From IMG/VR virus record IMGVR_UViG_3300022858_000986: a DNA stretch of 20,000 bases, one strand, 5' to 3'. This DNA comes from an uncultured virus (IMG/VR IMGVR_UViG_3300022858_000986) (Duplodnaviria > Heunggongvirae > Uroviricota > Caudoviricetes). This document shows positions 2-20,000 of the stretch, one piece after another; position 1 is the first letter of the stretch, and each line of letters starts with the position of its first letter. The position numbers and the translations under genes were made by a program. The notes under the pieces were generated by a model. The model had not been told where the DNA came from. It was given only the letters and a program-made list of their open reading frames with translations, and made no database searches.

Positions 2-832
2 GATATAAATAATAAAGAAACAGAATGACCATTTGGTGATGAAAAATTAAATGACTACCCAATTTCATTATTTGTTGATTACATTCCAAGCCCAGAAGAA
101 CTTGCGACAAACCCGCACAATATATTAATGATTATGGAGCCAAATGAATATTTCGGATTACATACTTTTGCTGAAAATAATGCGTCATATTTTACATGTA
201 TTTTGACATGAGGCCAACATATTTTGGATAATTGTGAAAATGCAGTTTTTATGCCTCATGGACTGAGTTGATTAAAAATGCCATACATAGATAATTTCCA
301 AAATATTAAGAAAAAATATGAAGTATCTTTTTTGTGCGGTGCTTTAAAAAAAATAGAAGGTCATTTTATTAGACATAAATTATATAAACGTGGTGATGAA
401 ATAACAATGCCTAAAAAATGATTTTATACATTGCCTGATTACAAAGAAGTAAATGGCAAATATAGAAGGACAGAACTGAATGCAAAAAAAGTTTGTTGAG
501 ACGAGAGTATGTTCCATATTGCTATTGAGAATATAAAACGTGACAATTTTTATACAGAAAAAATCTTAGATGCCTTCCTAACAAAAACAATACCAATATA
601 TTACGGCTGTCCCAATATCGGTGAATTTTTCAATTCTGATGGCATAATAACATTTGATAATGAAACTCAAGCAATTGACATTTGCAACTCACTTACAGAG
701 GATGATTATTATAAAAGAGTGAATGCGATTAATGAAAACTATAAAATTGCAAAAAGTAAATTTTATTGAAGAGGTATGGTTCAAGATTGACTTTGAGATT
801 TTATAAAAATAAACGAAATAGGGAGTAAATAA
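2..832 (+). CDS. Glycosyltransferase family 10 (alpha-1,3/1,4-fucosyltransferase-like), 5'-truncated by the window edge; code 4
   Basis: Frame is open from 2 to TAA 830-832 if TGA at 26, 209, 269, 419, 497, 767, 788 and 794 is Trp. GT10 motif FHIAIENIKRDNFYTEKILDAFLTKTIPIYYG. The stop overlaps the fcl start (TAATG). Confidence 0.85.
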
Positions 833-1767
833 TGATAAGTTTTTATTACGATAGCATCCTTTGCACTGGCGGGTCTGGTTTAGTAGGACAATATTTACAA
901 CAAAGATTAAAGCCACAATTTTTACCAAACATACATTACATTTCAAGTAAAGATTATGATTTATGTAATATGGACGACGTTAAAAAAATGATGGATAAGT
1001 ACAAACCAAAAGTCGTAATTCATCTGGCGGCGAGGGTTGGTGGCATTGTTGAGAACATTAAATATCCAGTAGATTTTTACGAACAAAATATTTTAATGAA
1101 TACGAATGTATTGCAACAATGTCACGAGCATAACGTTGAAAAAGTTATTGGAATAATTAGCACATGTGCTTATCCAGATGTAGTAGAAAAATATCCAATG
1201 GTTGAAGATGACCTTTTTAACGGCAGACCACCTGAAACAAATTTTTCTTATGCGTTTGCGAAGCGAGCAATGGCGGCACAAATTGACGCTTATGTAAAAC
1301 AATATAATAAAAAATGGTGTTATCTAATACCGTGCAATTTATATGGCGAATTTGACAAATTCGATCCAGAAAGAAGTCATTTTGTTTCTGCATTACTTCA
1401 GAAAATTATGGATGCTGATGATAAGATACAACTATTTGGAACTGGGAAACCATTAAGGCAATTTATGTATGCTGATGATTTGGCGAAGTTAATTGTATTA
1501 ATGCTAAATGCAGATATAGTCCAAAACTTTAACGTAGCAACAGACGAAATATATAGTATTAAAGAAATAGCCGAGATTGCTTTGAACGCCTTAGACGAAG
1601 ATTTGAAAATTGAATTTGATGAAACAAAACCTAATGGGCAATATAGAAAAGACGTGAGTTGTAAAAAATTATTAAGCCATTTCCCACACTTTGGATTTAC
1701 GCCTTTAAGTGCCGGAATAGAAAAGGTGTACAACGCAATGATGATACAGAAAAATAACGGACAGTAG
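832..1767 (+). CDS. fcl: GDP-L-fucose synthase (GDP-4-keto-6-deoxymannose 3,5-epimerase/4-reductase)
   Basis: TGGSGLVG, HLAARVGGI, STCAYP (catalytic Cys), YAFAK (YxxxK), PCNLYG, SHF (catalytic His), GTGKPLRQF. RBS GGGAG at 821-825. Confidence 0.92.
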   Translation: MISFYYDSILCTGGSGLVGQYLQQRLKPQFLPNIHYISSKDYDLCNMDDVKKMMDKYKPKVVIHLAARVGGIVENIKYPVDFYEQNILMNTNVLQQCHEHNVEKVIGIISTCAYPDVVEKYPMVEDDLFNGRPPETNFSYAFAKRAMAAQIDAYVKQYNKKWCYLIPCNLYGEFDKFDPERSHFVSALLQKIMDADDKIQLFGTGKPLRQFMYADDLAKLIVLMLNADIVQNFNVATDEIYSIKEIAEIALNALDEDLKIEFDETKPNGQYRKDVSCKKLLSHFPHFGFTPLSAGIEKVYNAMMIQKNNGQ

Positions 1768-1768
1768 A
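1753..1768. repeat. Left arm of a 16-bp inverted repeat (partner 2113-2128)
   Basis: AATAACGGACAGTAGA versus the reverse complement of 2113-2128 (AATAACAGACAGTAGA): 15/16 identical. The mismatch would be a G-U pair in RNA. Confidence 0.75.
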
Positions 1769-1788
1769 AAGATAGAAAGATAGAAAAG
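1765..1788 (+). repeat. Short 8-bp tandem repeat (TAGAAAGA x~3)
   Basis: TAGAAAGA TAGAAAGA TAGAAAAG, starting at the fcl stop codon and running into the next RBS. Confidence 0.7.
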
Positions 1789-1798
1789 GAGATACAAA

Positions 1799-2101
1799 AT
1801 GTATTTGAAAATTAGGCAAAGAGAGAAAGACGACAATAATGGGAAAGTGGAGTCCTGATACATTATTGGAGACGTAAAGGAAGTATCATATAAATGAGTT
1901 AAATTTGAAAAGTTTCCTCATAAAATGTATGAAGGGTGTAGATTAATATTAACGGGAAGTGAAAATGATTTAAAGTATGTTAGACGATTACTTATTTTTC
2001 ATGATATAGGTAAGATGTCAGGAGACCATTGTGAAGAAATTTATTGCGATGATGATGTTTATCTTTGTAATGAAAATGGTAAAACAATAGAACATATATA
2101 G
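1799..2101 (+). CDS. Hypothetical protein, 100 aa (phage-type, C-terminal VYLCNENGKTIE motif); code 4
   Basis: AAGGAG RBS at 1786-1791, ATG 1799, TGA at 1856 and 1895 read through, TAG 2099-2101. Absent from the ORF track. Confidence 0.75.
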
Positions 2102-2112
2102 GAAATAGATTA

Positions 2113-2128
2113 TCTACTGTCTGTTATT
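2113..2128. repeat. Right arm of a 16-bp inverted repeat (partner 1753-1768)
   Basis: TCTACTGTCTGTTATT in the intergenic gap after the 100-aa ORF. Confidence 0.75.
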
Positions 2129-2149
2129 ATATAAAAGGAAAATATTAAA

Positions 2150-2341
2150 ATGAGCTGTAAATGCCAAGAATGTGGAAAGCAATACAAAGTAGATATTATT
2201 GTTCCTGATGAAATATGGGAAAAAATAAAACCAAAAAATAAACCAGAAGGTGTCGGACTACTTTGCGGTAAATGTATAATGTTGAAAATAGAAGAAATGA
2301 ATAAATATGATTATTGATATTTAACCAAAAAGGAGAATTAA
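2150..2341 (+). CDS. Small putative zinc-binding protein, 63 aa (CxxC...CxxC); code 4
   Basis: MSCKCQECGK...VPDEIWEKI...GLLCGKC. TGA 2315 read-through moves the stop to 2339-2341, 1 nt before the next ATG. AAGGA upstream. Confidence 0.75.
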
Positions 2342-2346
2342 AATGA
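2330..2346 (+). promoter_or_regulatory. Recurrent translation-initiation motif AAGGAGAATTAAAATGA
   Basis: Identical 17-mer at 2330-2346 and 2560-2576, and a near copy AAGGAGATTAAAATGA at 17111-17126. Each is a Shine-Dalgarno plus spacer plus ATG. Confidence 0.7.
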
Positions 2347-2561
2347 AAAATAAGTTTAAATTAAGTGCAGGCAGTATGGTAAAGATAAGCGGAATACCAT
2401 TTGCATTAACGAGCGATGTAATAGTAGAGACGGCAACACCTGGCGAAATGTATCGTTATCATAACGACGGCCGTTGCCTGTATAATGTTGGGTTTGCATC
2501 GCCTGATGAAGACGGTACGTTTATACAAGTTAAAAATATACAAGATATAGACGATAAATAA
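2343..2561 (+). CDS. Hypothetical protein, 72 aa
   Basis: Strong AAGGAG RBS, fills the gap between neighbours, TAA stop. No recognisable family. Confidence 0.7.
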   Translation: MKNKFKLSAGSMVKISGIPFALTSDVIVETATPGEMYRYHNDGRCLYNVGFASPDEDGTFIQVKNIQDIDDK

Positions 2562-2572
2562 GGAGAATTAAA

Positions 2573-3160: not shown

Positions 3161-3163
3161 ATT

Positions 3164-5302
3164 ATGAAGAAGAAGGCACTTTTGACAGGAATATCAGGAC
3201 AAGATGGAAGTTTTTTGGCAGAATTCTTATTAGAAAAAGATTACGAAGTTTACGGAATTGTAAGACGTAGTTCTGTAGCGGAAAATCAAACGTCAAGGCT
3301 TATAAATATTTGAGATAAGATTAAAGATAATTTATTCTATGCAGACATTACAGATTTCGCATCTTTGCTTAGAGTTATAAACATTGTAAAGCCAGATGAA
3401 ATTTATAATTTGGCGGCCCAATCACATGTGAGAATATCATTTGATGAACCAATTTATACAACTGAAACAATTGTTCAAGGAACTCTTAATCTATTAGAAA
3501 TAATACGATTAGAACACCCGCACATAAAACTATATAATGCCTCTAGTTGTTTGCCAGCAGGAACTACAATTATAGTCAAAAAAGAAATTCAAAGAACAAG
3601 AGACAACAAAAAACAAAGCTTTTTGCAAGGCGGAAGTGTAAATAAAATAGAAAACATAATTGTTGGAGATGAAATATTATCTTTTAATGAAAAAACTTCG
3701 AAAAAAGAATATAAAAAAGTTAAAGCAATTGGCAATAGAATTGCGAATAATATGTTTACTTTAAAGTTGTCTAATAGAAATGAATTGCGGCTTTCTGGGA
3801 ATCATCCAGTTTTTGTTGTAGATAAAGGATGAGTTAGAACAGATAGTTTAAAAATAGAAGACAAGGTACTTCAGTATATATATCCCGGACTTAGAGGCAG
3901 GATTACAAAGGGGCTAACTAATATTGAATTATATGGGGAAAAAAGAGCCAAGGAAATACATAAAAAAAATTCTGAATCACAAAAAAATAGAACCTTTGTC
4001 CACCCATGAAAAGGGAAAACATTAAATGAAGTATATAAAAATAATAAGAAAAAATTAAAACAAATACGTCACATTTTTAGCGTAAGTAAAATAGGAATCG
4101 CCCCCTGAAATAGTGATATTAAAAATAGCAAAAATAAAAAACATATTATGGCTTGAGAAAAAGCTAAAAAAAATATTGGCAAGAGCAATAAAAAATTATG
4201 AGAAAATAAAGAATGGGCAGAAAAACAATTTAATAAGCTTATGATTAGAACGAGAAAGAACACTTGGTTGCCTAATAAAAGTGAGATTAAATTTCAAGAA
4301 TTTTTAGAAGAAATATGTCCAGGCGAATTTAAATATAATAGTTTTGAAAATGAAGACTTTTTGACTATAGAGAGAAAAATACCTGATTTCATTAATATTA
4401 ATAATAAGAAAAAACTTATTGAATATAATGGAGATTATTGGCACAATTTAGATGGCAGAAGAGAAAATGATAAAAAAAGAATACAATTATTTAAAAGTAT
4501 AGGATATGATGTATTAGAAATATTTGAGTCTGAATTTAAAAAAGATAAAAATAAAGTTGAAAATAAAGTAAAAACATTTTTATATAATCCACAAGTAGAA
4601 ATAATAGAAATAATTGAAATTTTAAAACACGATTATTCGGAAAAAGTCTACGATATTCAAGTTGAAGATAATCATAATTTTTTCGCTTATGGAGTATTAG
4701 TTCATAATAGTGAAATGTTTGGCAACAATATTGATGCTGATGGATTCCAAAGAGAAACAACGCCAATGAACCCAGTAAGTCCTTACGGGTGCGCCAAAAC
4801 TTATTCGTACAATATAGTTAGGAATTATAGACATTCTTATGGTTTATTTTTAAGTAACGGAATATTATTCAACCATGAATCGACAAGGCGTGGCTTAAAT
4901 TTTGTTACAAATAAAGTAGTTAAAGCGGCAGTAGAAATTATATTAAATAAACGTGATACTTTGCCGTTAGGCAATTTAGATGCGGCAAGAGATTGGGGCC
5001 ATGCCAAAGATTATGTCAAAGCAATGTGAATGATGTTGCAACACGACAAGCCAGATGATTTTGTTTGTGCAACGGGAACTTCTCATACAGTTAGAGAATT
5101 AGTTGAATATGTATTTAAGAGTCTTGGCACAGATTATAAAAAATATGTTACAATAGATGAAAGATATTACAGACCAGAAGAACTTAACGTATTGAAAGGT
5201 GATTCAACAAAAATACAGAGAGAGCTTGGTTGGAAACGAGATTATAATTTTACAACAATGCTAGATGAAATGGTGAGATATTGGCTAGAAAAATTAGGAT
5301 AG
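3164..5302 (+). CDS. gmd: GDP-mannose 4,6-dehydratase precursor containing an intein (712-aa precursor, about 325 aa spliced); code 4
   Basis: [73 protein letters not shown](W)MMLQ. Single frame once TGA at 3311, 3830, 4007, 4106, 4154, 4199 and 5027 is read as Trp. AAGGAG RBS. Confidence 0.95.
3548..4708 (+). mobile_element. Intein (387 aa) with a central Vsr/DUF559-like endonuclease
   Basis: Block A CLPAGT; block [16 protein letters not shown](W)[12 protein letters not shown]; blocks [24 protein letters not shown] followed by the +1 Ser. Central PNKSE...IPDF...[10 protein letters not shown]...[18 protein letters not shown]. Confidence 0.93.
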
Positions 5303-5311
5303 GAGAATAGG

Positions 5312-6688
5312 ATGGGTTTTAATAATGAAAAAGAACAACAAAAAATATTAAAGATGATACAAAAATATTTTGATAAAAAAGAAAAAACAAAGACATGAGA
5401 GGCAGGCAAAGATTGAGTACATTATGCTGGGCCTAAATTTGATGCTGGTGAATATAAAGCGGCGATACAAGTATTACTTGATGAATGGTTAATTTTAGGC
5501 AAAAAAGGAAGAGAGTTCGAAGCGAATTTTGCAGAGAAACTTGGCTGTAAATACGGAATTATGACAAATAGTGGTTCAAGTGCTAATTTACTTATGATGG
5601 CATCCTTAGCATTAGGCAAAAATAGACTGCCCAAAGGTTCAAAAATAATTACGCCAGTATCAGGGTTTTCAACAACAGTGGCGCCAATAATACAAATGGG
5701 CTTTAGACCAGTTTTTGTTGATGTTGAACTTAAGACAATGAATATTGACTTAGACAAATTAGAAGATTTTCTAATCCAAGAACGCAAAACGGCACCTCAG
5801 CACGAATGGAGCAAAGCATTAGTATTCGCACATGTATTGGGAAATCCACCTGATATGAGTAGGGTTATGAAGATTGTTAAGGATTATGATTTAATGTTAC
5901 TTGAAGATTGTTGTGACGCACTTGGTTCAATTTATAAAAATAAGAAATTAGGTTCGCTTGGCAAAATGGCAACATGTTCATTTTTCCCTGCTCATCATAT
6001 GACTTGTGGCGAGGGCGGTTTCGTTGCAACAAATGATAAAAAATTATATGACAAATTAAGAAGCCTAAGAGATTGAGGTCGAGGTTGTAGTTGTGTCGGC
6101 AAAGAAGAAAATGTTTCAAGTAATGGTGCGTGCGGCAAAAGATTTAGTAATTGATTGCCAAATATGCCAGATCTTGTATTTGATCACAAATATATATTTA
6201 GTAATATTGGGTTCAACTTACGCCCAACAGAAATGCAAGCCGCAATGGCGAATGAGCAAATGAAAAAATTAAGTAGTTTTCATGCTGATAGGAGATTAAG
6301 GTATTCGGTACTTAAACAAAAGTTTGAAAAATATTCTGACAAGTTCCATGTTGTTACAGCAACGAAACATGCGTGAGTATCTTGGTTTGCCTTTCCAGTA
6401 ATTATTAAAGATGATGCTGGATTTAGTAGAGAAGATTTGATTAATTTCTTTGAAAAAAAGAAGATACAAACGAGACCTTATTTCGCAGGTAATATTTTAC
6501 ACCAACCAGGATATACATTTTTGACTAAGCAAGAAAAAAATAAGGTTGAGAACTTTCCGAATGCAAACAAAATATTAAGGGATGCATTCTTTCTTGGCGT
6601 AAGCCCTGTAATAAGTTTTGAACAGATTGAATACATTGGCAAAATACTTGATAACTTTATGGAAAAAAGACAGTGAAGCGGTAAATAA
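5312..6688 (+). CDS. rfbH: NDP-4-keto-6-deoxyhexose 3-dehydratase, E1/RfbH/DdhC type (PMP- and Fe-S-dependent, DegT/DnrJ fold), 458 aa; code 4
   Basis: NSGSSANLL, AHVLGNP, EDCCDALGS, SFFPAHHMTCGEGG (His in place of the PLP Lys), RD(W)GRGCSC...CGKRF, FDHKY, SWFAFP, IQTRPYFAGNI. TGA at 5396, 5414, 6074, 6152, 6374 and 6674. AGGAG RBS. Confidence 0.88.
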
Positions 6689-6701
6689 TAGGAGAAATAA
6701 A

Positions 6702-7052: not shown

Positions 7053-7118
7053 TTAATGAGCGCAATGAATGAAAAGTAAGTGCAATAACACACAACAAAA
7101 GAAAAATAGGTGCAAATA

Positions 7119-8039
7119 ATGAGATTTTTTATACACGCACATATTATGCCATGAGAGATAGATGAACTTCTTGTACTGGTAAGAAAACTAAAAAAATCAT
7201 ATTATTATTTAGATAAAGACGATGAATGTACATTCTATGTTTGTTTAAATTTATCAAGTGCAATAGTTGACTGAGATAAATCAAAATTAGAAAAGAAATT
7301 CTTTATTGATAAGTTTAATTCTATTTTACAAATATTAAATAATAGTTATAGTATAGAATGTGAGATATACGAAGGAGACGACCCAATTGGGCATTTGGAT
7401 ACAGAGAAAAAACTTTATAAACGACATGAAGAGTACGATGGAGTTCTTGTTCTATGTCCAGATGTTCATTTTCATAATACATTGTTGTATAGTATGTTTT
7501 CTGCATTTAAGATTATAGAAAATAAATTTTCAATAGTAACTCCACAAACACATAAATTGTGAGACGTAACTTGAGACGAAATGACAAATAAATATTGTAA
7601 GCAATTCAGCCACAAAGATTACCGTAAGATTGACGTATATGACGTTGAATTAGTCACTGAGAATAATTTAGATAATATATCAATTTTGCCAGTTACTAAC
7701 AATAAATGGGCGGGATGATTTGACCTTAGGTCGTCTGAGATATGTAGATTATTTCCACCACCCGAAAGCTGAACGGGGTTTGGGCCATATGATACTTATT
7801 TAATGTGGTTATTACATCACAACAAAAGAGAAGTCTCATCATTTGACTTTCAACAATATGTTATTGAGAATCAAGTAATTGGCAAATATTCAAATCATAA
7901 TTTCAAACAATTTTATAAAGAATACCTTGCCTTTAAAGATGTAAAGCTAACACAAAGAAAAAAATATGAAAGTGAAATTAATTGGTTAGTAAAAATGAAG
8001 TTAAAAGAATTACAAGAAGGAGACAAAACAAGTGAATAA
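7119..8039 (+). CDS. Putative GT-A-fold glycosyltransferase-like protein, 306 aa; code 4
   Basis: Frame is open with TGA at 7152, 7272, 7560, 7572, 7716 and 7770. YDGVLVLCPDVHF resembles a DxD region and (W)TGFGPYDT resembles a GWG.ED acceptor loop. The function is inferred from these weak motifs and from context. Confidence 0.7.
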
Positions 8040-11045: not shown

Positions 11046-12002
11046 ATGAGCGGAAGAAAAATAGCATATGTTACTGGGTGCCTTGGATTTATAGGGCAAT
11101 ATGTAACCAGATTACTATTAAAGAAAGGTTGATATGTTAGAGGTGTTGACAAAATTACTTACGCCGCAAATATTGACTTATTAAAAGAGTTTAATGAATA
11201 TGATAATTTTACATTTGAACGAAGTGATATATGCGATTTAGAACGATTGTATGATTGTGATTATATTATTAATATGGCGGCCGAAACACATGTTGACAAT
11301 TCAATAGTTCGTAGTGAGGAATTTGTACATTCGAATATAAATGGCGTTCATAATTTATTGGAATTAATAAGAAAAAGAAAACATTTCAAAATGCCAACTT
11401 TAATACATTTTTCATCAGATGAGGTATACGGAGATATTGTTGGTGGCGCTCATACCGAAAGGGATTTGCTAAAGCCAAGCAATCCTTATTCAGCTACAAA
11501 AGCATCTGCCGATATGCTGATAAAGGCGTGAGGTAGAACCTACGACGTGCCAAGTATAATTGTGAGACCAACAAACAATTATGGCATCGGGCAATATGTT
11601 GAAAAATTAATTCCCAAAGTATGTAAATATTTATCTATTGGTAGAAAAATACCAATGCATGAAAACGGTGAGCCTATTAGGAATTGATTACACGCAAAAG
11701 ATACAGCGAGAGCAATTGAAATTATTCTTGAGAAGGGTGCGGTCGGTAACATTTATAATATATCTGGAGATTTCGAGCAAGCAAACATTTTAACATTTGA
11801 GAAAATTTTAGATATATATTTTAAAGGACAAATTAGTGATGCCAATAATTTTGCAGATTTTACTTGCGAAAGAAAGGGGCAGGATGTTCGCTACTCAATT
11901 GATGATTCAAAGATTAGAGATTTAGGCTGGGCTCCAGTATGTAATTTTGACCATGAGCTGATTAAGATAGTTGAATATTATAAAAATAAATTTGTATGGT
12001 AA
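11046..12002 (+). CDS. rfbB: dTDP-glucose 4,6-dehydratase-like (RmlB/RfbB), 318 aa; code 4
   Basis: VTGCLGFIG, DKITYAAN, AAETHVDNSI, SSDEVYGD, PSNPYSATKASAD, A(W)GRTY, NNYG, EKLIPK, IRN(W)LH, RKGQDVRYSID. TGA at 11130, 11529 and 11685. Confidence 0.9.
11815..11862 (+). repeat. 48-bp perfect direct repeat, copy 1 (inside rfbB)
   Basis: TATATTTTAAAGGACAAATTAGTGATGCCAATAATTTTGCAGATTTTA is identical at 12715-12762, an offset of exactly 900 bp. Confidence 0.95.
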
Positions 12003-12003
12003 T

Positions 12004-12663
12004 ATGATGCTGAACTTAAATAATGTTACTTTGATTGCCTTAGATTGCGTCAACCCATATTATGCTGTAAATGCATTAAAATATAGTTCGAAAGATATTA
12101 AGTTTAATAAAATGTTATTACTATCCGATACAATGCCATCAAATATTACAAAAGATATAGAATGAATTAAGATTCCAAAAATTAATAGTATTATTGAGAG
12201 TTGCATATTCTCATTTTACTATATGAACGGATTTATACAGACAGACTTTGTTATGGGAATTCAATCAGATGGGTTTATTATTAATCCACATTTGTGAGAG
12301 GATGAATTTTTTAAATATGACTTTATTGGTGCTCCATGACCAGAATTAGAAATGGAAAATAGAATTGGAAATGGTGGGTTTACTATGCGAAGCAAGAAAT
12401 TTATAGAGTTATCACAGCAAATTGATTGAGATTGGGAAACACCAGATGATGTTTTTCTTAATAAGATAAATTATGATTTTTTTATCAAAAATGGTATGAA
12501 ATATCCGAGTCCAAAAGTTGCCGCAAGATTTTCAATGGAAAATCCGTTATGAGATATAAAATATGATTTAACTAAATGTTTTGGATTCCACAAAAGTTGA
12601 AGGGAAGAGTCGCAAGCTTACGTTAATATGATTAGGCAGGATTTCCCAATATGAGAAAAATAA
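12004..12663 (+). CDS. DUF5672-family protein (putative glycosyltransferase-like), 219 aa; code 4
   Basis: IQSDGFIINPHL(W)EDEFFKYDFIGAP(W)...IGNGGFTMRSKK...AARFSME...FGFH. TGA at 12163, 12295, 12337, 12427, 12550, 12598 and 12652. Confidence 0.85.
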
Positions 12664-12902
12664 AAATAGATTTATATGGCAAAAAATTACTTGGAGCTAT
12701 AATGACTATATATGTATATTTTAAAGGACAAATTAGTGATGCCAATAATTTTGCAGATTTTAGTATAACAAGAAAAGGTCAAGATGTTCGATATTCAACC
12801 AATGACTCAAAAATTAAAGCACTTGGGTGAAAACCCATATGTAATTTTGATACGGAGCTTATTGATATTGTAGAACATTATAGAAATAAATTTATCTGAT
12901 AA
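12651..12902 (+). pseudogene. Orphan diverged copy of the rfbB 3' end (62 codons) fused in frame to a short unrelated 5' segment; 83-aa ORF in code 4
   Basis: 12714-12902 is colinear with 11814-12002 without gaps. 47/62 aa are identical by hand count and many changes are synonymous. Confidence 0.8.
12715..12762 (+). repeat. 48-bp perfect direct repeat, copy 2
   Basis: Identical to 11815-11862. Confidence 0.95.
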
Positions 12903-12939
12903 ATAGAGATACTATGAATAACATAATAGGAGGTTATAA

Positions 12940-14445
12940 ATGAATAAATTTTTTAACAATTTAATTACACTTGAAATGGCAAATAATCATATGGGCGACG
13001 TTAATCATGCTTTACAAATGGTTGGCGAATTTAATTTAATCGCAAAAATGTTTGATGAATTTCAATTTGCTTGGAAGTTTCAATTTAGAGATATTGATAC
13101 ATTCATACATAAAGATTACAAAAATAGAATGGATGTAAAATATGTCAAAAGATTTAGTGAAACAAAATTAACAAATGGCGAAATTTTAAAAATAAAAAAG
13201 TTTGCAGAAGATAAGGGTTTCATAACAATGGCGACAGCGTTTGATGAGCCTTCTGTAGATTTAATTGAAGAAATGAATTTTGATATTATAAAGATTGCAA
13301 GCTGTTCATCCACAGATTGACCGTTATTAAATAAGATTGTAGAAACAAACAAACCAATAATTATCTCAACCGCTGGCGTCAAACTAAAAGACGTTGATAA
13401 TATTGTGAGTTTCTTACAACATAGGGAAAAAGACTTTGCCTTAATGCATTGTGTCGGCGAGTATCCTACTGGAGAGGAAAATCTACAACTTAATCAAATT
13501 GATTTGTTTAAGAATAGATATAAAAATATTACAGTTGGGTTTTCAACACATGAGAACCCAAATAATTATGATACTGGAGCGATTGCTGTTGCTAAGGGCG
13601 CAACAATATTAGAAAAACATGTTGCTGTAGAGACGAACAAATACAAACCTAACGCCTACTCGGTTCAACCATGACATTTATATAATTGGTTATATGAGAT
13701 ACGCAAAGCGTTGTCGATGTGTGGCGTTAAAAATGAGCGACATGAATTTTCTGAGAAGGAGACGACTGATTTAAGAACGTTCAAAAGGGGCGTGTTTGCT
13801 AAAAATGATATTCAGATTGATGATATAGTTAGCAGAGAAGAAGTATATTATGCTTGGCCAAATTGCGAAAAACAAATTCTAGCGAATGATATGTCAAAAT
13901 ATAACAAGTACACTGCAACACAAAATATAAAGGCTGGAGAGCCCGTTTTGACAAACTCAGTAACATTTAAAGATACAAGAGACAAGATTTGAGATATAGT
14001 ACAAGACGTTAAATCATTTTTGAAAGAATCAAACGTTGCATTTCCACAGAAAGCAGATTTAGAAATCTCACATCATTATGGCATTGATGGCTTTTACAAA
14101 ACGGGATTGACAATGATAACAGTTATTAACAAAGAGTATTGTAAAAAATTAATTATAATGTTGCCTAAACAATGACATCCTGAGCAATATCATAAGATAA
14201 AAGACGAAACGTTTATTATCTTATACGGAAGTGTAAGTTTATATTTGAATGGCGAACGTAAAAAATTAAATAAAGGCGACGTTGTAACAATAGAGCCAGG
14301 CGTCAAACACTTCTTTCGTACTGTAAGTGGATGTGTAATTGAAGAAATCTCTTCTACACATTTCGCTGATGATTCTTATTATACCGACGCAACCATTAAT
14401 AACAAAAAAGATAGAAAAACAGAAATAACACATTGGTTGGATTAA
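12940..14445 (+). CDS. neuB: NeuB-family (N-acetylneuraminate/nonulosonate synthase-like) protein with SAF domain and C-terminal cupin, 501 aa; code 4
   Basis: EMANNHMGD, KFQFRD, TAFDEPSV, KIASCSSTD(W)PLL, KPIIIST, MHCVGEYPT, VGFSTHE, LEKHV; SAF-like KRGVFAKNDI; cupin Q(W)HPEQYHKIKDETF...GVKHFF...IEEISSTH. TGA at 13318, 13672, 13990 and 14173. AGGAGG RBS. Confidence 0.85.
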
Positions 14446-14446
14446 T

Positions 14447-16288
14447 ATGAAATTATCAGATTATGTAATAAAGTTTATCGAAGAGGCGGGAGTAAAAGAT
14501 ATATTTATGTTGCCTGGTGGTGGCTGTATACATTTGGTCGATTCTGTAAGGAAAAGCAATTTGAATTATATATGTAATTTACATGAACAAGGAAGCAGTA
14601 TTGCCGCAGAGGCATATTCGCAATATACAAATAATTTAGGAGCGTGTTTGGTAACGACTGGGCCCGGAGGAACAAATACCGTTACAGGTGTGGCTGGTGC
14701 TTGACTTGATTCAATACCTATGATATTTATATCGGGGCAAGTTCCGATAAAAGATAGAACTTTCGGATTAGCAAGACAAGGGGGATTTCAAGAAGTTGAT
14801 ATAGCCGCCATTGTTAAGCCAATTACAAAATATGTAGTGAGAGTCAGTAACCCACTTATGATAAAGGTACATCTAGAAAAAGCATTATATGAAGCGACCA
14901 ACGGCAGGCCAGGCCCTGTATGAATAGACATTCCGTTAGACGTACAATCTGCACAAATTATTCCAGAAGTTTTAAATGGATGAGTTGAGCCAGAAAAGGT
15001 CGGCATGAATACGAAACAATCAGTAACAGACATTATAAATGATTTAAATTTTGCAAAGCGACCTGTTATTTTGGCAGGTAATGGTATTAGATTATCAAAA
15101 TCAGTTAAAGATTTCTTACAGTTAGCAGATATATTAAAAATACCTGTATTAACGACTTGAAAGGCAATTGACTTCTTTGACGAGAGCCACCCTTTATATA
15201 TTGGTAGGCCGGGTCTTGTTGGGCAAAGAGGCGCAAACTTTTCACAACAAAATTCTGATTTCGTACTTAGTATAGGTGCAAGATTAGACTTAGGCCAGAC
15301 AGCGTATAAGCCAGGATATTTTGCTCCGAATGCCAAAAAAGCAATAGTTGATGTTGACCCAAATGAAATTGCCAAAATACAAAAAAATACTTACTTGCAA
15401 ACTGGCGACGAAGAAAAAAAAAGGTCAGGAGATGAAAATAGAATGAAAGTAGATTACTCAGTCGAAGCTGATGCCGGTGAATTTATTAGAGAATTTATTG
15501 AGCAAAGCGGAATGCTTACTGCTGATTATAGTAATTGAGTTAAAGAGTGTAAAAGATTACACGAAAAATACCCAATATGTTTGCCTGAATATTGAAAAGA
15601 AAAGGACGGCGTTAATAATTATGTTTTGGTTGAAGCTTTGTCCAGAATTGTCTCAAATGATGTCGTGATTATTCCAAGCAGTTCCGGCTGTTCAAGTGAG
15701 GTAACAATGCAATCATTTAAGGTCAAAAAAGGGCAAAGAATATTTAACACGCCAGGTTTGGGAGCTATGGGGTACGGTATTCCTGCCGCAATTGGAGCTT
15801 GTGTGGCAAGTGATGGAAAAGAAACAATTTGTCTTGATGGTGATGGTGGTTTTATTATGAATATTCAGGAGCTTGAAACTGTTAAAAGATTGGGCTTACC
15901 AATTAAATTTTTTATATTAAATAATGAAGGGTATGTTTCAATACGCAATACGCAAAATAGTCACTTCGACGGTAAGCTTATTGGTAGTGACAAAGATAGT
16001 GGATTGACTCTTCCCGACTGAAAGAAGATTGCAAACGCATTTGGAATTCAATATACGTCAATAGACAGTCATAAAAAAATAGACAAACAACTCGAAATTA
16101 TTTTGGACATTCTGGGCCCTGTAATATGCGAAGTCAAAATGTCATTTGAACACACTACGGCACCGAAAGCGTCCATTTATAAAAAAGATGATGGGACTTT
16201 TTCTACAAAACCAATGGAAGATTTGGACCCGCCGTTAGACAGAGAAGAGTTTGAGGAAAATACAAAATGATGCAATCATTATTGATAA
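14447..16288 (+). CDS. Thiamine-pyrophosphate-dependent enzyme, acetolactate-synthase-like (YerE-type sugar-branching candidate), 613 aa; code 4
   Basis: HEQ, VTTGPGGTN, GA(W)LDSIP, GRPGPV(W)IDIPLDVQ, IPVLTT(W), GQRGANF, TPP motif GDGGFIMN...ILNNEGY. Nine in-frame TGA: 14702, 14921, 14981, 15158, 15536, 15593, 16019, 16268, 16283. Confidence 0.88.
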
Positions 16289-17112
16289 CAGGTGGTGATG
16301 GATTCATAGCAAGACATTGCAAAGAATATTTTAAAGACAGATATAGAGTGTTTGCCCCGAACAAATATGAGCTTAATTTAATGAATTTCGAAGAACTTAA
16401 AGAATGATTTTCTTGAAACCATATTGATTACGTTATACACACGGCAGTTTATGACGCACAAACAACATTTGGCAATAAAGATAAAAATAAAGTATTCTTA
16501 AATAACATGCAGATGTTTATGAATTTGGCCAGATTACAGAATTCATTTGATAGAATGATTTATTTTGGTTCTGGTGCCGAAACGCATATGGGGCAAGTTA
16601 GCAATTCACAGTATTCACTTGCGAAACAAACAATGACAAAATATATCGAAATATCAGAGAATAATATTTTCAATCTAAGATTGTTTGGGGTGATGGGAGA
16701 GTTTGCCGATTGAAGATATAGAATCCCAGAAAACTTAATTTGCAAAGCAATATATGATATGCCTTTGTATGTACCAAAAAATAAGATGTTTTCTTATATA
16801 GACGTTATCGACTTAATGAAAATTATAAATTTAATTTTAGAAAAGAAAGAGCTTGAATATAAAACGTATAATTGTGTTAATTCAAATTTAATAAATTATC
16901 AAGTATTTATAGATAAATTATTGAAACTTTCTCATAAAAAATTAAAGATAGACATAAAAAGTGATTATATACTTTATGAAGGCAATAATACAAATTTAAT
17001 TAATGAATTTCCAGAGCTTGGATTTACAGAACTTGATGATACTATTGGAAGATTATTAAATTATTATTTGGCAAACAAAGACAAAATAGATATAAATAAA
17101 TTTGAATATTAA
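16267..17112 (+). CDS. NAD(P)-dependent epimerase/reductase (extended SDR), 281 aa; code 4
   Basis: LLITGGDGFIA, DYVIHTA, YFGSGAE, YSLAK, LRLFGVMG, FSYIDVIDL. TGA at 16405, 16414 and 16711. Confidence 0.85.
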
Positions 17113-17122
17113 GGAGATTAAA

Positions 17123-18238
17123 ATGATAATAGACAATGAGTTTAAGAAGACTGAAACATATAAACGTGATTATTTAAAAAGAGAAAAGCCCTATGTGTAT
17201 GAAAAAATGTTAAAGTTTGGCGACAAACTTAAGAATGGTGAGAGCATAGCAATTATACAATTCCAATATAATTTTAAATGTAACTTTAAGTGCGTACATT
17301 GCTCAATAAAAGGATTTCAAGGAAATTTTGAAGAGAAAAAATCTTATACGATTAATGATGTAAAGAGGTTATCAAAAGAAGCTGATGAATTAGGACTTGC
17401 AAGATTTGTAATAACTGGCGGAGAGCCATTAATTTTTTCAGACCTTGACGATTTAATTGCGGCAATTGACCCGCAAAAGTTTTACATTAATCTTGACACA
17501 AATGGTTGGCTTTTAGATGATGCAAAGGCAAAGCACTTAAAAGAAATAGGAGTCGACAGAATTCAATTAAGTATAGATAGCCTTGACGCAAAAGAACACG
17601 ATGATTTCAGAAGAGCGCCAGGCTCATATGTACGCTGTCTAAGAGCAATTGACGCCGCAAAAAACGCCGGATTGGACATTTTTATACAAACGGTAGTTAC
17701 GCACTCAAGACTTCATTCGCAAGAGTTTATTGATTTTATCAAATACTTTAATGAAAAAGATGTTACGGTATTTGTTAGTTATGCAAAACCAGTTGGGGCT
17801 TGGGAAGGACATTATGATGAATTGGTTTCAATGGATGATATAAATTATTTTAAAGAAATGGAAAAAGAACATAACATTTGCACTCACTTAACTTCCGCTT
17901 ACGGTAGAGACTTGGGCTGTATTGCAGTTAAAGGTATGATTTCTGTAACACAATATGGCGATGTGATGCCTTGCCCATATATTCATACATCTATAGGTAA
18001 TGTTTTTCACGAGCCACTAAAAGATATTATACAACGTGGATTTGATATTAAATTTTTTGGAGAGTGGGCCGACACATGTTGGATAGCTGAAAATATGTCG
18101 TTTATAAAAAATTATGTTGCTAAAAATATATATGGTAAAGAATTACCAGTTTCAAGTGACCAAGTTTTCGGTGATAAGGATAAGACAAAAATTCCCTTTA
18201 ATGAAACAATGATAAAAGAAAATAAGTTTTCTGATTAG
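17123..18238 (+). CDS. Radical SAM protein with SPASM/twitch-type C-terminal domain, 371 aa
   Basis: CNFKCVHC (CxxxCxxC), TGGEPL, TNG, QLSIDS...HDDFR, GCIA...GDVMPCPY..SIGN. AAGGAG RBS supports ATG 17123 over the track's 17102. Confidence 0.9.
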   Translation: MIIDNEFKKTETYKRDYLKREKPYVYEKMLKFGDKLKNGESIAIIQFQYNFKCNFKCVHCSIKGFQGNFEEKKSYTINDVKRLSKEADELGLARFVITGGEPLIFSDLDDLIAAIDPQKFYINLDTNGWLLDDAKAKHLKEIGVDRIQLSIDSLDAKEHDDFRRAPGSYVRCLRAIDAAKNAGLDIFIQTVVTHSRLHSQEFIDFIKYFNEKDVTVFVSYAKPVGAWEGHYDELVSMDDINYFKEMEKEHNICTHLTSAYGRDLGCIAVKGMISVTQYGDVMPCPYIHTSIGNVFHEPLKDIIQRGFDIKFFGEWADTCWIAENMSFIKNYVAKNIYGKELPVSSDQVFGDKDKTKIPFNETMIKENKFSD

Positions 18239-18247
18239 GAAGATAAA

Positions 18248-19234
18248 ATGAAAAGATGTAAAATTTGTAGTGCAAAATTAGTAAGCTTTATTGATTACAA
18301 AAAACAGCCAAGTAAAGCACAACATTTGCCGAACATGAAAATGTTACAAAGTGATTTTGATATTCCATTACATATTTTTGAATGTACTGGATGCGGAACT
18401 GTACAGCTTGTAACAGATCCAGTATCGTATTATTCTCAAGCGATTAGGTCGCCAGATTGGAATATAAACCCCTTTAGAAAAAAACAACGTAGTAAATTTA
18501 TTAAAGAATTTGAACTTGAAAATAAAATAATTAAACAAATTAATAGAGAACCAAAAGAAGACAGTTATGATGCTTTTACAATGTTTAATTATTTAGAACA
18601 TTTCCCATCTCCAAAAGATACATTGAAACAAATTTGCAACAACCTAAATGATAATGGGGTAGGCATTGTTGAAGTACCTAATTTTGATGAAATCATTCGT
18701 GACCGTATTTTTGGCGAATTCATTATTGACCATTTATTTTATTTTACAGAAAAAACTTTAAGATTTGTTTGCGAAGCAAGTGGGTTTGATGTTATTAAAA
18801 TAGAAGAAATTTGGAATGGAGCAAGTTTATCCGCAACAGTAAAAAAGCGTCCGTTATTAAAGCCAATATTGTTTAGAGAAAACGAAATAGAACTAATTGG
18901 AGATATTGATAATTTTGCAAATCAATTTAAGTCGGTAACGTTTTGAGGTGCAGGGCATCAAACACTTATGATACTTTCAATGATGAAAACAATACATAAG
19001 GTATCATACATCGTTGATGATTTTAAGGTAAAACAATTTTTATATACACCCGTTACACATAAGGAAATTTTACCAAGCAATACACTTCTTACAAACCCAA
19101 CTGATGCTATTATAATAATGGTTGGCTGACAATATAAGAATGTTCTTAAACGCCTTAGAAATCTTAATTTAACACAAATGCCAAAAATAGCCTTAATAAA
19201 AAAAGCAACATTAGAGATTTATGAAGATATATAA
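18248..19234 (+). CDS. NDP-sugar C-methyltransferase-like protein (N-terminal Zn site, C-terminal Methyltransf_14-like domain), 328 aa; code 4
   Basis: CKIC...CTGCGTVQL, YDAFTMFNYLEHFPSP, GVGIVEVPN, DHLFYF, F(W)GAGH, IVDD..VKQ..YTP. TGA at 18944 and 19127; TAA 19232-19234. Confidence 0.78.
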
Positions 19235-19252
19235 ATAATATTAGGAGGTTAT

Positions 19253-19540
19253 ATGAGTAAGACAAATTTCACAAGACTTAAAATTAATGACAAAGAAGAT
19301 ATTGGCAAGGTAGTTAAACACGAACTTGACAATGGATTTGACAGACGTACTGGCGAGCAAATGAAATTGCGTGAATATTACATTACGTATGAGGCCACAA
19401 GAACCGTAGAGGACAGTATGGTAGTCGAGGCATACAATGAATGTGATGCGATACATATGGCACGTGAAGAGGTAACGATGTTTGACGATGTTGAAGGCTT
19501 TACAATTGTAGAAATTACAGTGGAGGATTACGATGATTAA
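19253..19540 (+). CDS. Hypothetical acidic protein, 95 aa
   Basis: AGGAGG RBS. YYITYEATRT...VVEAYNECDA weakly recalls DpnD/PcfM-like small phage proteins (unverified). Confidence 0.72.
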   Translation: MSKTNFTRLKINDKEDIGKVVKHELDNGFDRRTGEQMKLREYYITYEATRTVEDSMVVEAYNECDAIHMAREEVTMFDDVEGFTIVEITVEDYDD

Positions 19541-19718
19541 TATGAAAAAATTAACAAATGAAATTGAACAAATTTTGAAACATGCTGGTAAATTAAAAAT
19601 GAATTTTGATTCAAAGTCCGCAATTGATTTTTACACACAAACAATAATGCAAGCGGTTAAGAAGGCAGAACATGACGCAATATTAGAAACAAGTAAGAAA
19701 GCAGAAAGTGGATATTAG
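19533..19718 (+). CDS. Hypothetical protein, 61 aa
   Basis: GGAGG at 19522-19526, 8-nt overlap with the upstream gene, TAG stop. Confidence 0.65.
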   Translation: MINMKKLTNEIEQILKHAGKLKMNFDSKSAIDFYTQTIMQAVKKAEHDAILETSKKAESGY

Positions 19719-19725
19719 TAGGGTA

Positions 19726-20000
19726 ATGAAAGAAAATGTTAAAATAATTGTTGGCAATATTGAAGACCAAGATACTCAAGTAATAGTTAATCCAACAAAT
19801 GCAGAATTAATTTGAGAAGATGAAACCTGTAATGGTGTCATTATGAATAAAGTTGGAATGCAATATTATCATGAATGTGAAAAATTTATTGACAGAAATG
19901 GCCCATTAGATATGAATGAAATATTCTGATGGAGGGGTGGAGATTCGGATGCCGAATTTATATTAAATATTTATCCACCATTTTGGCAGCCAGCTAATTC
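19726..20000 (+). CDS. Macrodomain (Appr-1''-p/ADP-ribose-binding fold) protein, divergent, 3'-truncated by the window edge; code 4
   Basis: VKIIVGNIEDQDTQVIVNPTNAEL...KVG..YYHEC.....NGPL..NE...RGG...AEFILNIYPPFW follows the GDI...IVNAAN..L...AG..L..EC...G.L..G...HAVGP.W template. TGA at 19813 and 19927. Confidence 0.72.

Follow-up and report, generated by a model that had tools for sequence, protein, structure and literature searches.

The in-frame TGA codons that interrupt the genes of this uncultured viral locus raise the question of which code the DNA uses, which amino acid TGA then specifies, and in what kind of organism. Read on the plus strand with code 4, the window (the whole 20,000-nt stretch that was analyzed) contained 23 tightly packed genes with no frameshift required. 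A total of 63 in-frame TGA codons were spread over 15 genes, compared to 43 TGG codons among 6,603 codons overall, so that TGA made up 59% of Trp codons and was used by 15 of the 19 Trp-containing genes. The 22 complete genes ended in TAA (17 genes) or TAG (5 genes) and never in TGA. The initial annotation had estimated about 60 TGA codons in 15 otherwise intact genes and had described tight packing with TAA/TAG ends, and both descriptions proved accurate. It had also proposed comparing coding density between codes. Measured as the share of the window covered by nonoverlapping open reading frames (ORFs) of ≥100 amino acids (aa), coverage rose from 0.51 under code 11 (mean length, 228 aa) to 0.90 once TGA was treated as sense (mean length, 376 aa). 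With TAG as sense it reached 0.55. Reading TAA as sense gave a coverage of 0.82, but the ORFs were short (mean, 239 aa), and this option is at odds with genes that stop at TAA at the ends of their orthologs. Shine-Dalgarno motifs preceded 16 of 21 genes, and GC content was low (31%). The features discussed below are as follows:

2..832, + strand: GT10-like (fucosyltransferase-type) glycosyltransferase, 5′-truncated at the window edge (Pfam PF00852, E = 2.7e-5; 8 TGA, 0 TGG)
832..1767, + strand: SDR epimerase/reductase (PF01370, E = 5e-50; PF16363; 0 TGA, 1 TGG)
1799-2101, + strand: small orphan gene (no Pfam family; 2 TGA)
2150-2341, + strand: small orphan gene (no Pfam family; weak phrog_6053 match only; 1 TGA, 1 TGG)
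3164..5302, + strand: GDP-mannose 4,6-dehydratase (GMD), intein-interrupted (PF16363 in two stretches, E = 3.9e-110; PF14890 Intein_splicing; 7 TGA, 6 TGG)
3548..4708, + strand: 387-aa intein in GMD with a nested DUF559/MTES_1575-type nuclease (Pfam; PDB intein matches; 3r3p "mobile intron protein")
5312..6688, + strand: PLP/PMP sugar 3-dehydrase, E1/ColD type (PDB 3bcx, E = 4e-92; PF01041; 6 TGA, 3 TGG)
7110..8039, + strand: protein of unknown family (no Pfam or PHROG family; 6 TGA, 3 TGG)
8905..11043, + strand: 712-aa GT2-domain glycosyltransferase (PF00535; 1 TGA, 9 TGG)
11046..12002, + strand: dTDP-glucose 4,6-dehydratase-like protein, RmlB type (PDB 2hun, E = 2.7e-68; 3 TGA, 2 TGG)
11971..12663, + strand: DUF5672 protein (PF18922; 7 TGA, 1 TGG)
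12651..12902, + strand: 83-aa remnant ORF, copy of the RmlB C terminus (2 TGA)
12940..14445, + strand: NeuB-type sugar-acid synthase with fused cupin domain (PF03102, PF07883; 4 TGA, 4 TGG)
14447..16288, + strand: ThDP-dependent (TPP) enzyme, nearest solved structure 8rph (E = 3.5e-108; 9 TGA, 0 TGG)
16267..17112, + strand: SDR epimerase/reductase (PF01370; 3 TGA, 0 TGG)
17102..18238, + strand: radical SAM/SPASM protein (PF04055, PF13186; TGA-free gene, 0 TGA, 4 TGG)
18248..19234, + strand: sugar C-methyltransferase-type protein (PF13489, PF08421, PF08484; 2 TGA, 2 TGG)
19708..19998, + strand: macro-domain protein, 3′-truncated at the window edge (PF01661; 2 TGA and 2 TGG within the window); in L002 the protein has 180 aa

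The product of 832..1767 is probably a GDP-fucose synthase-type enzyme, a name suggested by the nearby GMD gene. The GMD intein begins with Cys, ends in His-Asn, and is followed by Ser. An intein-free allele was present in run X23, where exactly the intein stretch was missing (joint, 3541 to 4708).

To identify the amino acid, TGA codons were masked as X before alignment to four standard-code contigs. TGG occupied the position in at least one of these contigs at 18 of 27 alignable TGA sites, and the 97 aligned cells held W in 54 cases, G in 2, and C in none. TGG sites of the window, used as a control, behaved alike (11 of 18 sites; 33 of 57 cells). For TGA, W had a log-likelihood of -202, whereas F and Y had values of -338 and -339, respectively. 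In a per-codon BLOSUM-based test of 61 codons, the sole meaningful departure from the standard code was TGA, assigned to W at 152.8 log units above Tyr.

Individual genes gave the same answer, most clearly the TPP enzyme, in which TGA residues 86, 159, 238, and 364 each aligned with W in 120/120 homologs and residue 383 with W in 107/120, and PDB homologs had W at 86, 159, 238, and 363; residues 525, 608, and 613 were aliphatic or acidic in homologs rather than Trp. Several motifs that the initial annotation had singled out as conserved Trp positions were upheld by homologs. These were GPV-W in the TPP enzyme (W in 120/120 homologs), GAP-W in the DUF5672 protein (22/24), AM-W-MMLQ at GMD residue 622 (TGG/W in 3/3 relatives), RD-W-GR in the E1 enzyme (W in 3bcx, among PDB homologs, and in 3/3 relatives), and RmlB residues 162 and 214 (W in PDB homologs and 3/3 relatives). 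Five of the seven GMD-gene TGA codons fall within the intein. The G-W of intein block B held only in part, with W in one of three solved inteins among the matches listed. Beyond these motifs, all three RmlB-type TGA sites were TGG/W in 3/3 relatives (residue 29 also in PDB homologs), as were four of the five aligned sites of the E1 gene, and DUF5672 residues 109 and 123 were W in 24/24 and 22/24 homologs. W was also found in 4/4 relatives at residue 127 of the NeuB-type protein, whose remaining three TGA sites were variable, and at residue 149 of the 16267..17112 epimerase. Both TGA sites of the C-methyltransferase-type gene were TGG/W in L003, its closest relative (63% identity), and the single homolog of the 7110..8039 protein (L015) carried W at three of six sites. 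Among 13 distant homologs of the 2..832 gene, residue 70 was W in seven, while residue 90 was G in five and W in four. TGA is thus an ordinary Trp codon here, and the remaining codons are read according to the standard code.

The TGA codons are also real rather than errors. Two other assemblies retained every one that could be compared (28/28 sites in L001 and 32/32 in L002), and four runs other than the source run yielded contigs reproducing the window; the contigs of run X14 differed from it at two positions over 6.7 kb and one over 7.3 kb. The possibility of systematic error raised by the initial annotation therefore does not apply. Moreover, TGA and TGG interchange between strains and between paralogous copies. 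Position 19984 in the macro-domain gene lies in a TGG in the window and in a TGA in L001 and L002, and positions 10957-10959 of the 712-aa glycosyltransferase are TGG in the window and TGA in L002 and part of X14, X15, and X23. The terminal Trp of RmlB is encoded by TGG followed by TAA in the intact gene and by TGA followed by TAA in the duplicate remnant. The two copies, 11809-11993 and 12709-12893, share 78.6% identity over 187 nt, and the DUF5672 gene sits as an insertion between RmlB and this duplicate of its 3′ end; no DUF5672 homolog was found in the relatives' contigs. Strains differ in gene content as well: 7110..8039 lies within a strain-variable region, with depth dropping over ~6.9 to 10.8 kb in three runs, and L002 carries a different front part of the 8905..11043 gene, with its match to the window starting at 10821.

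Readings of TGA as glycine (code 25) or selenocysteine, or of the genes as pseudogenes or assembly errors, find their footing in a few variable columns where Gly occurs (2 of the 97 cells; the 5 of 13 homologs at residue 90 of the 2..832 gene). Set against the predominance of W and lack of C in those same cells, the invariant W in four TPP columns, the 63 sites in 15 genes without any frameshift, and the persistence of TGA across independent assemblies and runs, this set of readings is so improbable as to be negligible. For Gly and Sec, the alignments amount for practical purposes to a refutation, and the preference of the initial annotation for Trp was supported at most of the sites it named.

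TGA is never a stop in this lineage. None of 33 gene ends in the lineage was TGA, including genes outside the window, for which the initial annotation had left room for a terminal role; in standard-code relatives, 27 of 77 genes (35%) ended in TGA (P = 6.5e-7). The 16267..17112 epimerase, for example, ends Tyr-TAA, whereas its orthologs end Tyr-TGA.

Within the window, all genes belong to sugar pathways, are small orphans, or encode a macro domain; none is a structural hallmark, and bacteria commonly have homologs of the sugar genes. On these grounds the DNA could have been wrongly classed as viral and instead be a surface-polysaccharide island from the chromosome or a plasmid of a bacterium that uses code 4. 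We consider this very unlikely given what lies around it. IMG/VR viral contigs, L001 and L002 among them, contain DNA near-identical to the window, and one such contig (G001, 35.7 kb; CheckV completeness, 15%) carries a GPW_gp25 match at 24803-25069 (E = 3e-11, above the curated cutoff) with one in-frame TGA inside, together with gp6-like candidates. The gp25-type protein has 32% identity to a gp25-like protein of G003. Genes downstream match phage-only PHROG families, and homologs of a 793-aa protein and ATPase pair adjoin in a 484-kb uncultured phage. The sequence searched yielded no housekeeping genes of bacterial type, no tRNA, and no rRNA. In G003, G004, and L005, the same sugar cluster sits beside T4-like baseplate, gp55-like, gp32-like, and gp41-like genes. 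These relatives are distant (31 to 63% identity for sugar genes and 32% for gp25), and since the nonsugar genes of the lineage had no homologs in the compared parts of the T4-like contigs, the shared cluster may be a transferred cassette rather than a sign of common descent.

The lineage is a phage, and its baseplate gene itself contains an in-frame TGA. One protein cluster of the lineage occurs on a contig that measures up to 138 kb. Relatives of the lineage's replication and structural proteins show at most ~33% identity to any cultured phage, and the lineage comes from salt-lake metagenome runs and one marine run. The window is very probably part of a large tailed phage genome from salt-lake metagenomes in which UGA, normally a stop, now specifies Trp (code 4), much as the initial annotation had supposed in favoring a recoded large phage over a Mollicute. 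A prophage within a code 4 bacterium is a less likely alternative.

We infer the decoding mechanism, since no tRNA, release factor, or Trp-tRNA synthetase (TrpRS) was found in the ~48 kb of the lineage examined. ARAGORN found no tRNA, nor did Rfam (E ≤ 1) in 39,965 bases or RF00005 across the whole 35.7-kb G001 record, and no RF-1/RF-2 domain or TrpRS was found in G001; the decoding genes that the initial annotation had suggested seeking thus did not appear. For UGA to be read as Trp, TrpRS would have to charge a tRNA that has a UCA-type anticodon, and there would have to be relief from release factor 2. Such a suppressor tRNA could be carried elsewhere in the phage genome, the host would be a standard-code, Shine-Dalgarno-using one, as proposed for recoded gut phages, and TGA-free genes would be translatable ahead of a code switch.

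Alternatively, the phage may share the code of a hitherto undescribed saline-water bacterium that reads UGA as Trp, in which case the phage would need to encode neither a suppressor tRNA nor a release factor. The failure to find decoding genes in ~48 kb would fit such a host, as would the heavy recoding (17 of 33 genes across the lineage and 59% of Trp codons, metabolic genes included) and the complete absence of TGA from gene ends; a figure legend in Borges et al. likewise treats phages with a large proportion of recoded genes as adapted to a recoded host (10.1101/2021.08.26.457843). However, those ~48 kb are part of a genome that measures at least 138 kb, and TGA as a sense codon was found in none of ~100 related viral loci screened, all of which use the standard code. 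Known code 4 bacteria are mostly symbionts or gut bacteria; to our knowledge, none is a free-living salt-lake bacterium, and we know of no code 4 host from a salt-lake habitat. Genes differed strongly in their use of TGA versus TGG (the observed statistic was attained in 0 of 20,000 permutations), and a run of ~6 kb downstream had 0 TGA and 18 TGG codons (P = 9e-8), neither of which is expected after long adaptation. Moreover, TGA accounted for a smaller fraction of Trp codons (0.59) than A-ending codons did for Lys, Glu, and Gln (0.76 to 0.84). Together, the uneven use, the TGA-free run, and this lower share suggest partial, phage-style recoding. We therefore regard a recoded host as a doubtful explanation and lean toward a phage-supplied suppressor tRNA in a standard-code host as the likelier one. 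The heavy recoding in sugar-metabolism genes and the relatives' TGA stops, which are not depleted (27/77), run counter to the suppressor model.

Reassignment of TGA has precedents. Borges et al. describe TGA-recoded Jade and Agate phages from animal and human guts, set out the same suppressor/code-switch model, and report suppressor tRNAs in just 35% of code 4 phages (10.1101/2021.08.26.457843); TGA recoding is also described in some crAss-like phages (10.1101/2022.06.29.495998). As in those gut phages, Trp positions of the present lineage are occupied by in-frame TGA, the GC content is low, relatives use the standard code, and TGA-free genes lie on the same contig; a suppressor tRNA often goes undetected. 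It differs in coming from salt-lake (and one marine) runs rather than the gut, in belonging to a different lineage with at most ~33% identity to cultured phages, and in recoding that is dense in sugar-biosynthesis genes and so not confined to structural and lysis genes, where the published pattern concentrates it. Its nearest standard-code relatives are distant, with 35% of genes ending in TGA, unlike the close relatives in the model of Borges et al. Code 4 bacteria such as Mycoplasma, Spiroplasma, and some reduced symbionts (10.64898/2025.12.01.691617) similarly read UGA as Trp with no TGA stop in AT-rich genomes where TGA is the commoner Trp codon, but gene content here is that of a tailed phage and TGA use is patchy between genes. 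Phages of Absconditabacteria and Gracilibacteria (code 25) also have dense in-frame TGA, with a code matched to a recoded host (PMC10746230), whereas the TGA columns here hold Trp rather than Gly (of 97 cells, 54 are W and 2 are G). Code 15 (TAG-to-Gln) Lak megaphages and crAss-like phages are likewise large phages with a reassigned stop, a change thought to depend on suppressor tRNAs and release factors that the phage encodes (PMC9523058, PMC6784885; 10.1101/2021.08.26.457843). The codon here is a different one: TAG as sense raises coverage only from 0.51 to 0.55, and TAG terminates 5 of the 22 complete genes. TGA-to-Trp phages are thus already published, as a rare habit known so far mainly from gut phages, and what is unusual here is the salt-lake habitat and the lineage of a phage that has it.

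Under the standard code, the plus strand of the window reads as a chain of short open reading frames (ORFs), whereas with TGA as a sense codon it resolves into 23 tightly packed genes on a single strand, none of which requires a frameshift. A total of 63 in-frame TGA codons were counted in 15 of these genes, alongside 43 TGG codons, among 6,603 codons in all, in agreement with the initial annotation, which had described about 60 in-frame TGAs in 15 intact genes. Comparing coding density between codes, as had been proposed there, raised the coverage by nonoverlapping ORFs of at least 100 aa from 0.51 under code 11 to 0.90 with TGA as sense, and the mean ORF length from 228 to 376 aa. By the same measure, TAG as sense gave a coverage of 0.55. 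TAA as sense gave a coverage of 0.82 but a mean ORF length of only 239 aa, and it conflicts with genes that stop at a TAA at the very point where their orthologs end.

Stop codons for 22 genes fall within the window, 17 of them TAA, 5 TAG, and none TGA, the pattern of tightly packed, TAA- and TAG-terminated genes that had first been noted from the sequence alone. With 11 complete downstream genes added from L002, a near-identical IMG/VR contig, and L012, a downstream part of the 35.7-kb IMG/VR record G001, 0 of 33 genes in the lineage (the window and its near-identical contigs) end in TGA, compared to 27 of 77 genes in standard-code relatives (P = 6.5e-7, given the relatives' rate). Terminal use of TGA, which had been raised as a possible objection for other genes on the contig, was not seen in these 11 downstream genes. 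At the exactly aligned end of the SDR gene, orthologs have Tyr-TGA and the window has Tyr-TAA. TGA has been lost as a stop codon in this lineage. The base following TGA was G in 26 cases, A in 16, T in 13, and C in 8, a distribution not clearly distinct from that after TGG; the window has a GC content of 29 to 36% and a strong purine excess on the coding strand. Codon 608 of the ThDP enzyme gene, a TGA that overlaps the ATG of the next gene as ATGA, was considered as a "fossil stop" and rejected, since the proteins of relatives are equally long and end in TAA. In the E1-type 3-dehydrase gene, the relative L003, a standard-code viral locus, stops at a TGA one codon ahead of the window's TGA-455.

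The window holds a large sugar-nucleotide cluster, with the following features:

2 to 832, plus strand: GT10-like glycosyltransferase (gene 1)
3164 to 5302, plus strand: GDP-mannose 4,6-dehydratase (GMD), interrupted by an intein
3548 to 4708, plus strand: the intein (387 aa)
5312 to 6688, plus strand: E1/ColD-type 3-dehydrase
8905 to 11043, plus strand: GT2 glycosyltransferase
11046 to 12002, plus strand: RmlB-like dehydratase
11809 to 11993 and 12709 to 12893, plus strand: duplicated 3' end of the RmlB-like gene
14447 to 16288, plus strand: ThDP (TPP) enzyme
16267 to 17112, plus strand: second SDR (reductase)
17102 to 19234, plus strand: radical SAM/SPASM protein and C-methyltransferase-type protein
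Elsewhere on the plus strand: SDR epimerase/reductase, DUF5672 protein, NeuB-cupin fusion, macro-domain protein, and several small orphans

The grouping of the E1-type 3-dehydrase, the ThDP enzyme (closest PDB structure, 8rph), the SDR reductase, and the radical SAM/SPASM and C-methyltransferase-type proteins points to the synthesis of a methylated or branched dideoxy sugar, perhaps by a yersiniose-type pathway, while GMD, an SDR, and the GT10-like gene together suggest the use of GDP-fucose. The intein lies within the ASS|SEMFG stretch of GMD, which we take to be the catalytic Ser/Thr-Glu motif of the enzyme, and its nested nuclease is of the DUF559/MTES_1575 type, like PDB 3r3p ("mobile intron protein"), and not a LAGLIDADG domain. 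Because the intein contains five in-frame TGAs, it likewise depends on code 4, and its presence is polymorphic, since an allele in X23, a nonsource sequencing run, lacks exactly that stretch (joint, 3541 to 4708). The two copies of the RmlB-like 3' end (78.6% identity over 187 nt) flank the DUF5672 gene and leave an 83-aa remnant ORF. This arrangement suggests that a gene was inserted here; at the corresponding place, relatives lack DUF5672.

To avoid circularity, TGA was translated as X in alignments with homologs. Solved homologs have Trp opposite X at residues 86, 159, 238, and 363 of the ThDP enzyme, in the RD-W-GR motif of the E1-type 3-dehydrase, and at residues 29, 162, and 214 of the RmlB-like protein; the remaining X sites face aromatic or variable residues and, in the alignments shown, never Gly. 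Four IMG/VR contigs with syntenic RmlB, NeuB-cupin, ThDP enzyme, and SDR genes in the same order, all fully open under the standard code, served as a comparison set. At least one of them has TGG at 18 of the 27 alignable TGA sites, the opposite of the lack of Trp enrichment that could have spoken against reassignment. Of the 97 cells aligned to TGA sites, 54 hold W, 11 Y, 7 L, 5 F, and 2 G, and none holds C. In the same comparison, TGG codons of the window match W at 11 of 18 sites and in 33 of 57 cells. The empirical likelihood for TGA was -202 as W versus -338 as F. In a BLOSUM-based per-codon test of 61 codons against the relatives, TGA was the only meaningful departure, with W preferred over Tyr by 152.8 log units; CTC (n = 4) was a tie without weight, and the other codons kept their standard meaning.

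Single columns give the same picture where homologs are numerous. The ThDP enzyme gene contains no TGG at all, and among 120 homologs (55 to 65% identity, including Nostoc, deltaproteobacterial, and archaeal entries) four of its TGA columns are W in 120/120 and a fifth in 107/120, with Gly in 0/120 at these five conserved columns. Two TGA columns of the DUF5672 protein are W in 24/24 and 22/24 homologs. Gene 1, for which only distant homologs were available, gave mixed columns (residue 70, W in 7/13; residue 90, G in 5/13 and W in 4/13), and residues 525, 608, and 613 of the ThDP enzyme, also encoded by TGA, are aliphatic or acidic in homologs. Trp sites that the initial annotation had named in the E1-type 3-dehydrase, RmlB-like, DUF5672, and ThDP proteins were thus recovered, but the proposed G-W site of the intein has W in only one of the three solved inteins shown. 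Gly, as in code 25, was rejected on its counts in the aligned cells (2/97) and conserved ThDP columns, and selenocysteine on the spread of the 63 sites across 15 unrelated genes and the absence of Cys from the 97 cells. TGA is reassigned to Trp, rather than to Gly or Sec, a conclusion about as secure as sequence analysis alone allows.

The TGA codons recur in independent data. Two near-identical contigs from other assemblies, L001 (99.9% identity to the window) and L002 (99.3%), keep 28/28 and 32/32 TGAs, respectively. Window DNA is contained in 24 public runs, 23 labelled salt lake metagenome and one marine, with no RNA run listed among them; 13 are flagged as possible sources, and the contigs compared with the window came from four unflagged runs. 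Contigs from run X14 match positions 1 to 6719 with two differences and 12733 to 20000 with one, and a contig from run X15 matches 12733 to 19913 with two differences. This retention across assemblies and runs argues against a systematic error in which reads would carry TGG at these sites. Two sites do vary between strains. Position 19984 lies in a codon that is TGG in the window and TGA in L001 and L002, and positions 10957 to 10959 are TGA in L002, with the G>A change making up a fraction of the depth in X14 and X15 and the whole of it in X23. Within the window, the terminal Trp of the RmlB-like protein is encoded by TGG and the same residue in the duplicated 3'-end remnant by TGA.

A strain-variable stretch at ~6900 to 10820 (1 to 944 in L002) has lower depth in three of the four runs. 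Upstream of window position 10821, L002 carries a UDP-glucose dehydrogenase fragment and a 181-aa protein in place of the window sequence, and this protein has only its C-terminal domain in common with the GT2 protein of the window. TGG-rich genes (1 TGA and 9 TGG; 0 TGA and 2 TGG) fall within this stretch.

The window itself contains no structural hallmark gene. The case for a phage rests on the sequence around it, for which L001, L002, and another 3,566 bases of G001 (L012) were examined downstream. The near-identical contigs are IMG/VR viral contigs, the 35.7-kb one being 15% complete according to CheckV, and the DUF5672 protein cluster of the lineage is found on a contig as long as 138 kb. 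Matches among the genes just downstream include phage-only PHROG families, a macro domain, an LPD29 domain, and a CbbQ/NorQ-type ATPase. This ATPase and its neighbor, a 793-aa protein, have homologs that are adjacent in a 484-kb uncultured phage. Just downstream of the macro-domain gene, L002 (10376 to 10952) carries two adjacent paralogous genes (99 and 95 aa), both phrog_17589. Searching all 35.7 kb of G001 for protein families found a GPW_gp25 baseplate wedge match ~17 kb beyond the window (E = 3e-11, above the curated cut-off), in a frame of 133 aa that contains a single in-frame TGA, and gp6-like candidates (phrog_6) are also present, unscored. The Gp23 capsid model PF07068 matched nothing anywhere, controls included, and was uninformative. 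Shine-Dalgarno motifs in 16 of 21 genes indicate prokaryotic, Shine-Dalgarno-dependent translation. That the genome is a phage is well supported, and the gp25 gene with its in-frame TGA, the IMG/VR contigs, and the PHROG matches favor the recoded large phage suggested in the initial annotation.

Kinship is less direct. The standard-code relatives G003, G004, and L005 have syntenic sugar genes beside genes for gp6-/gp25-like baseplate proteins, gp55-like sigma factor, gp32-like SSB, gp41-like helicase, and RNR; the gp55-like sigma factor (phrog_234) was found on G003 only and not on G001. The lineage's nonsugar genes have no homolog in the examined parts of these T4-like contigs, and the gp25-like proteins of G001 and G003 have no more than 32% identity, so the sugar cluster may be a cassette that these genomes have in common and need not mean that they are closely related. 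No cultured phage is closer than ~33% to the relatives' helicase. In G003, two giant ORFs of 2,715 aa (L009 3 to 8147) and at least 2,347 aa (L009 11989 to L010 4029; both loci of G003) flank the gp6-/gp25-like baseplate genes, and neither has a PHROG match.

None of the other related loci screened needs TGA as sense. The screen took in the four contigs with syntenic genes, two huge phages, 15 viral loci that carry a homolog of gene 1 (GC, 0.25 to 0.50), 37 loci that carry the helicase of the relatives, 39 of 52 retrieved metagenome loci (those at least 4 kb long), and six further ThDP-enzyme loci; some contigs were counted in more than one of these sets. The huge phages LR756508.1 and LR756511.1, which have a few genes in common with the lineage, use the standard code. 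Low GC alone is insufficient to explain the recoding, since loci at 25 to 28% GC use the standard code. A search with gene 1 for a near-identical contig reaching upstream found none (best, 47% in viral_contigs and metagenome_contigs alike), although run X14 contains a 37.7-kb contig that extends ~31 kb upstream of the window. For P0026, at 65% the best ThDP-enzyme homolog from outside the lineage, viral_contigs holds no contig.

Reading UGA as Trp requires a UCA-type tRNA-Trp and relief from RF2. No tRNA was found by ARAGORN, which misses intron-split forms, in the window, L002, and L012, by Rfam at E ≤ 1 over 39,965 bases (a search that gave no match at all), or by RF00005 over the whole of G001, and searches of G001 found no release factor domain or Trp-tRNA synthetase (TrpRS). 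The decoding genes that the initial annotation had suggested looking for, tRNA-Trp(UCA), TrpRS, and release factors, were thus missing from the ~48 kb searched, out of a genome that spans 138 kb or more. By analogy with the published gut-phage model, we lean slightly toward a host that uses the standard code and a phage that supplies a suppressor tRNA. Early genes free of the recoded codon would be expressed first and the suppressor tRNA afterwards. Borges et al. (10.1101/2021.08.26.457843) found suppressor tRNAs in just 35% of their code 4 phages; in that model, the phage sometimes encodes RF1 and TrpRS as well. In favor of the suppressor model, use of TGA versus TGG is very uneven by gene (9/0, 8/0, and 7/1 versus 1/9 and 0/4; 0 of 20,000 permutations reach the observed statistic), a ~6-kb downstream run has no TGA among 18 Trp codons (P = 9e-8), and TGA makes up a smaller share of Trp codons (0.59) than A-ending codons do for Lys, Glu, and Gln (0.76 to 0.84). 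Recent gene gain may instead lie behind part of this unevenness, since the TGG-rich GT2 gene sits in the strain-variable stretch. In the published model, recoded codons are concentrated in late, structural, or lysis modules and other modules stay readable under the standard code; here, most of the genes seen to be recoded encode sugar enzymes, and the gp25 gene carries one TGA.

A host that natively uses code 4 is rather unlikely, even though such a host would fit the extent of recoding in metabolic genes (TGA is used by 15 of the window's 19 genes that contain Trp), the complete loss of TGA stops, and the lack of a suppressor tRNA, release factor, or TrpRS in ~48 kb. Were the host natively recoded, the phage would point to an unknown code 4 bacterium. 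It is slightly less likely again that the phage code mirrors that of a free-living saline-lake bacterium, of a lineage unrecognised as recoded, that natively reads UGA as Trp; if so, the phage would be the first visible trace of that bacterium. Shine-Dalgarno motifs argue only against a Shine-Dalgarno-poor host, and the closest bacterial matches to the GT2 gene in genome_contigs (26 to 30%, in a Saprospiraceae MAG and an Acidobacteriaceae MAG) are uninformative for host or donor.

Overall, the initial observation is confirmed and its interpretation, TGA as Trp in a phage-like genome, is supported. Stop codon-recoded phages have so far been characterised almost entirely in gut microbiomes, and TGA-to-Trp phages from that setting are described by Borges et al. 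A Codetta screen of 85 marine jumbo-phage bins reports code 11 only (PMC9123017), and a survey of 10,754 jumbo phages reports alternative codes in 5.75 to 8.75% of those from rumen, pig gut, and human gut versus 0 to 0.65% in other habitats (PMC13037316). No report of recoded phages from salt-lake or hypersaline settings was found in the literature searched. The present lineage is set apart from the gut phages of Borges et al. by its salt-lake habitat, its lineage, and the recoding of a whole sugar-pathway cluster. In their model, recoded phages have close standard-code relatives with low GC and depleted TGA stops. We found no such close relative here, and the relatives of this lineage are distant, with 37 to 43% GC and TGA as the stop codon of 27 of 77 genes. 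Since code 11 fragments the sugar cluster (coverage, 0.51 versus 0.90), such phages and their auxiliary genes are easily misannotated. A TGA-to-Trp lineage in salt-lake water, amid standard-code relatives, indicates that the same transition occurs outside the gut, and it offers a natural population in which the same sites still vary between TGG and TGA.
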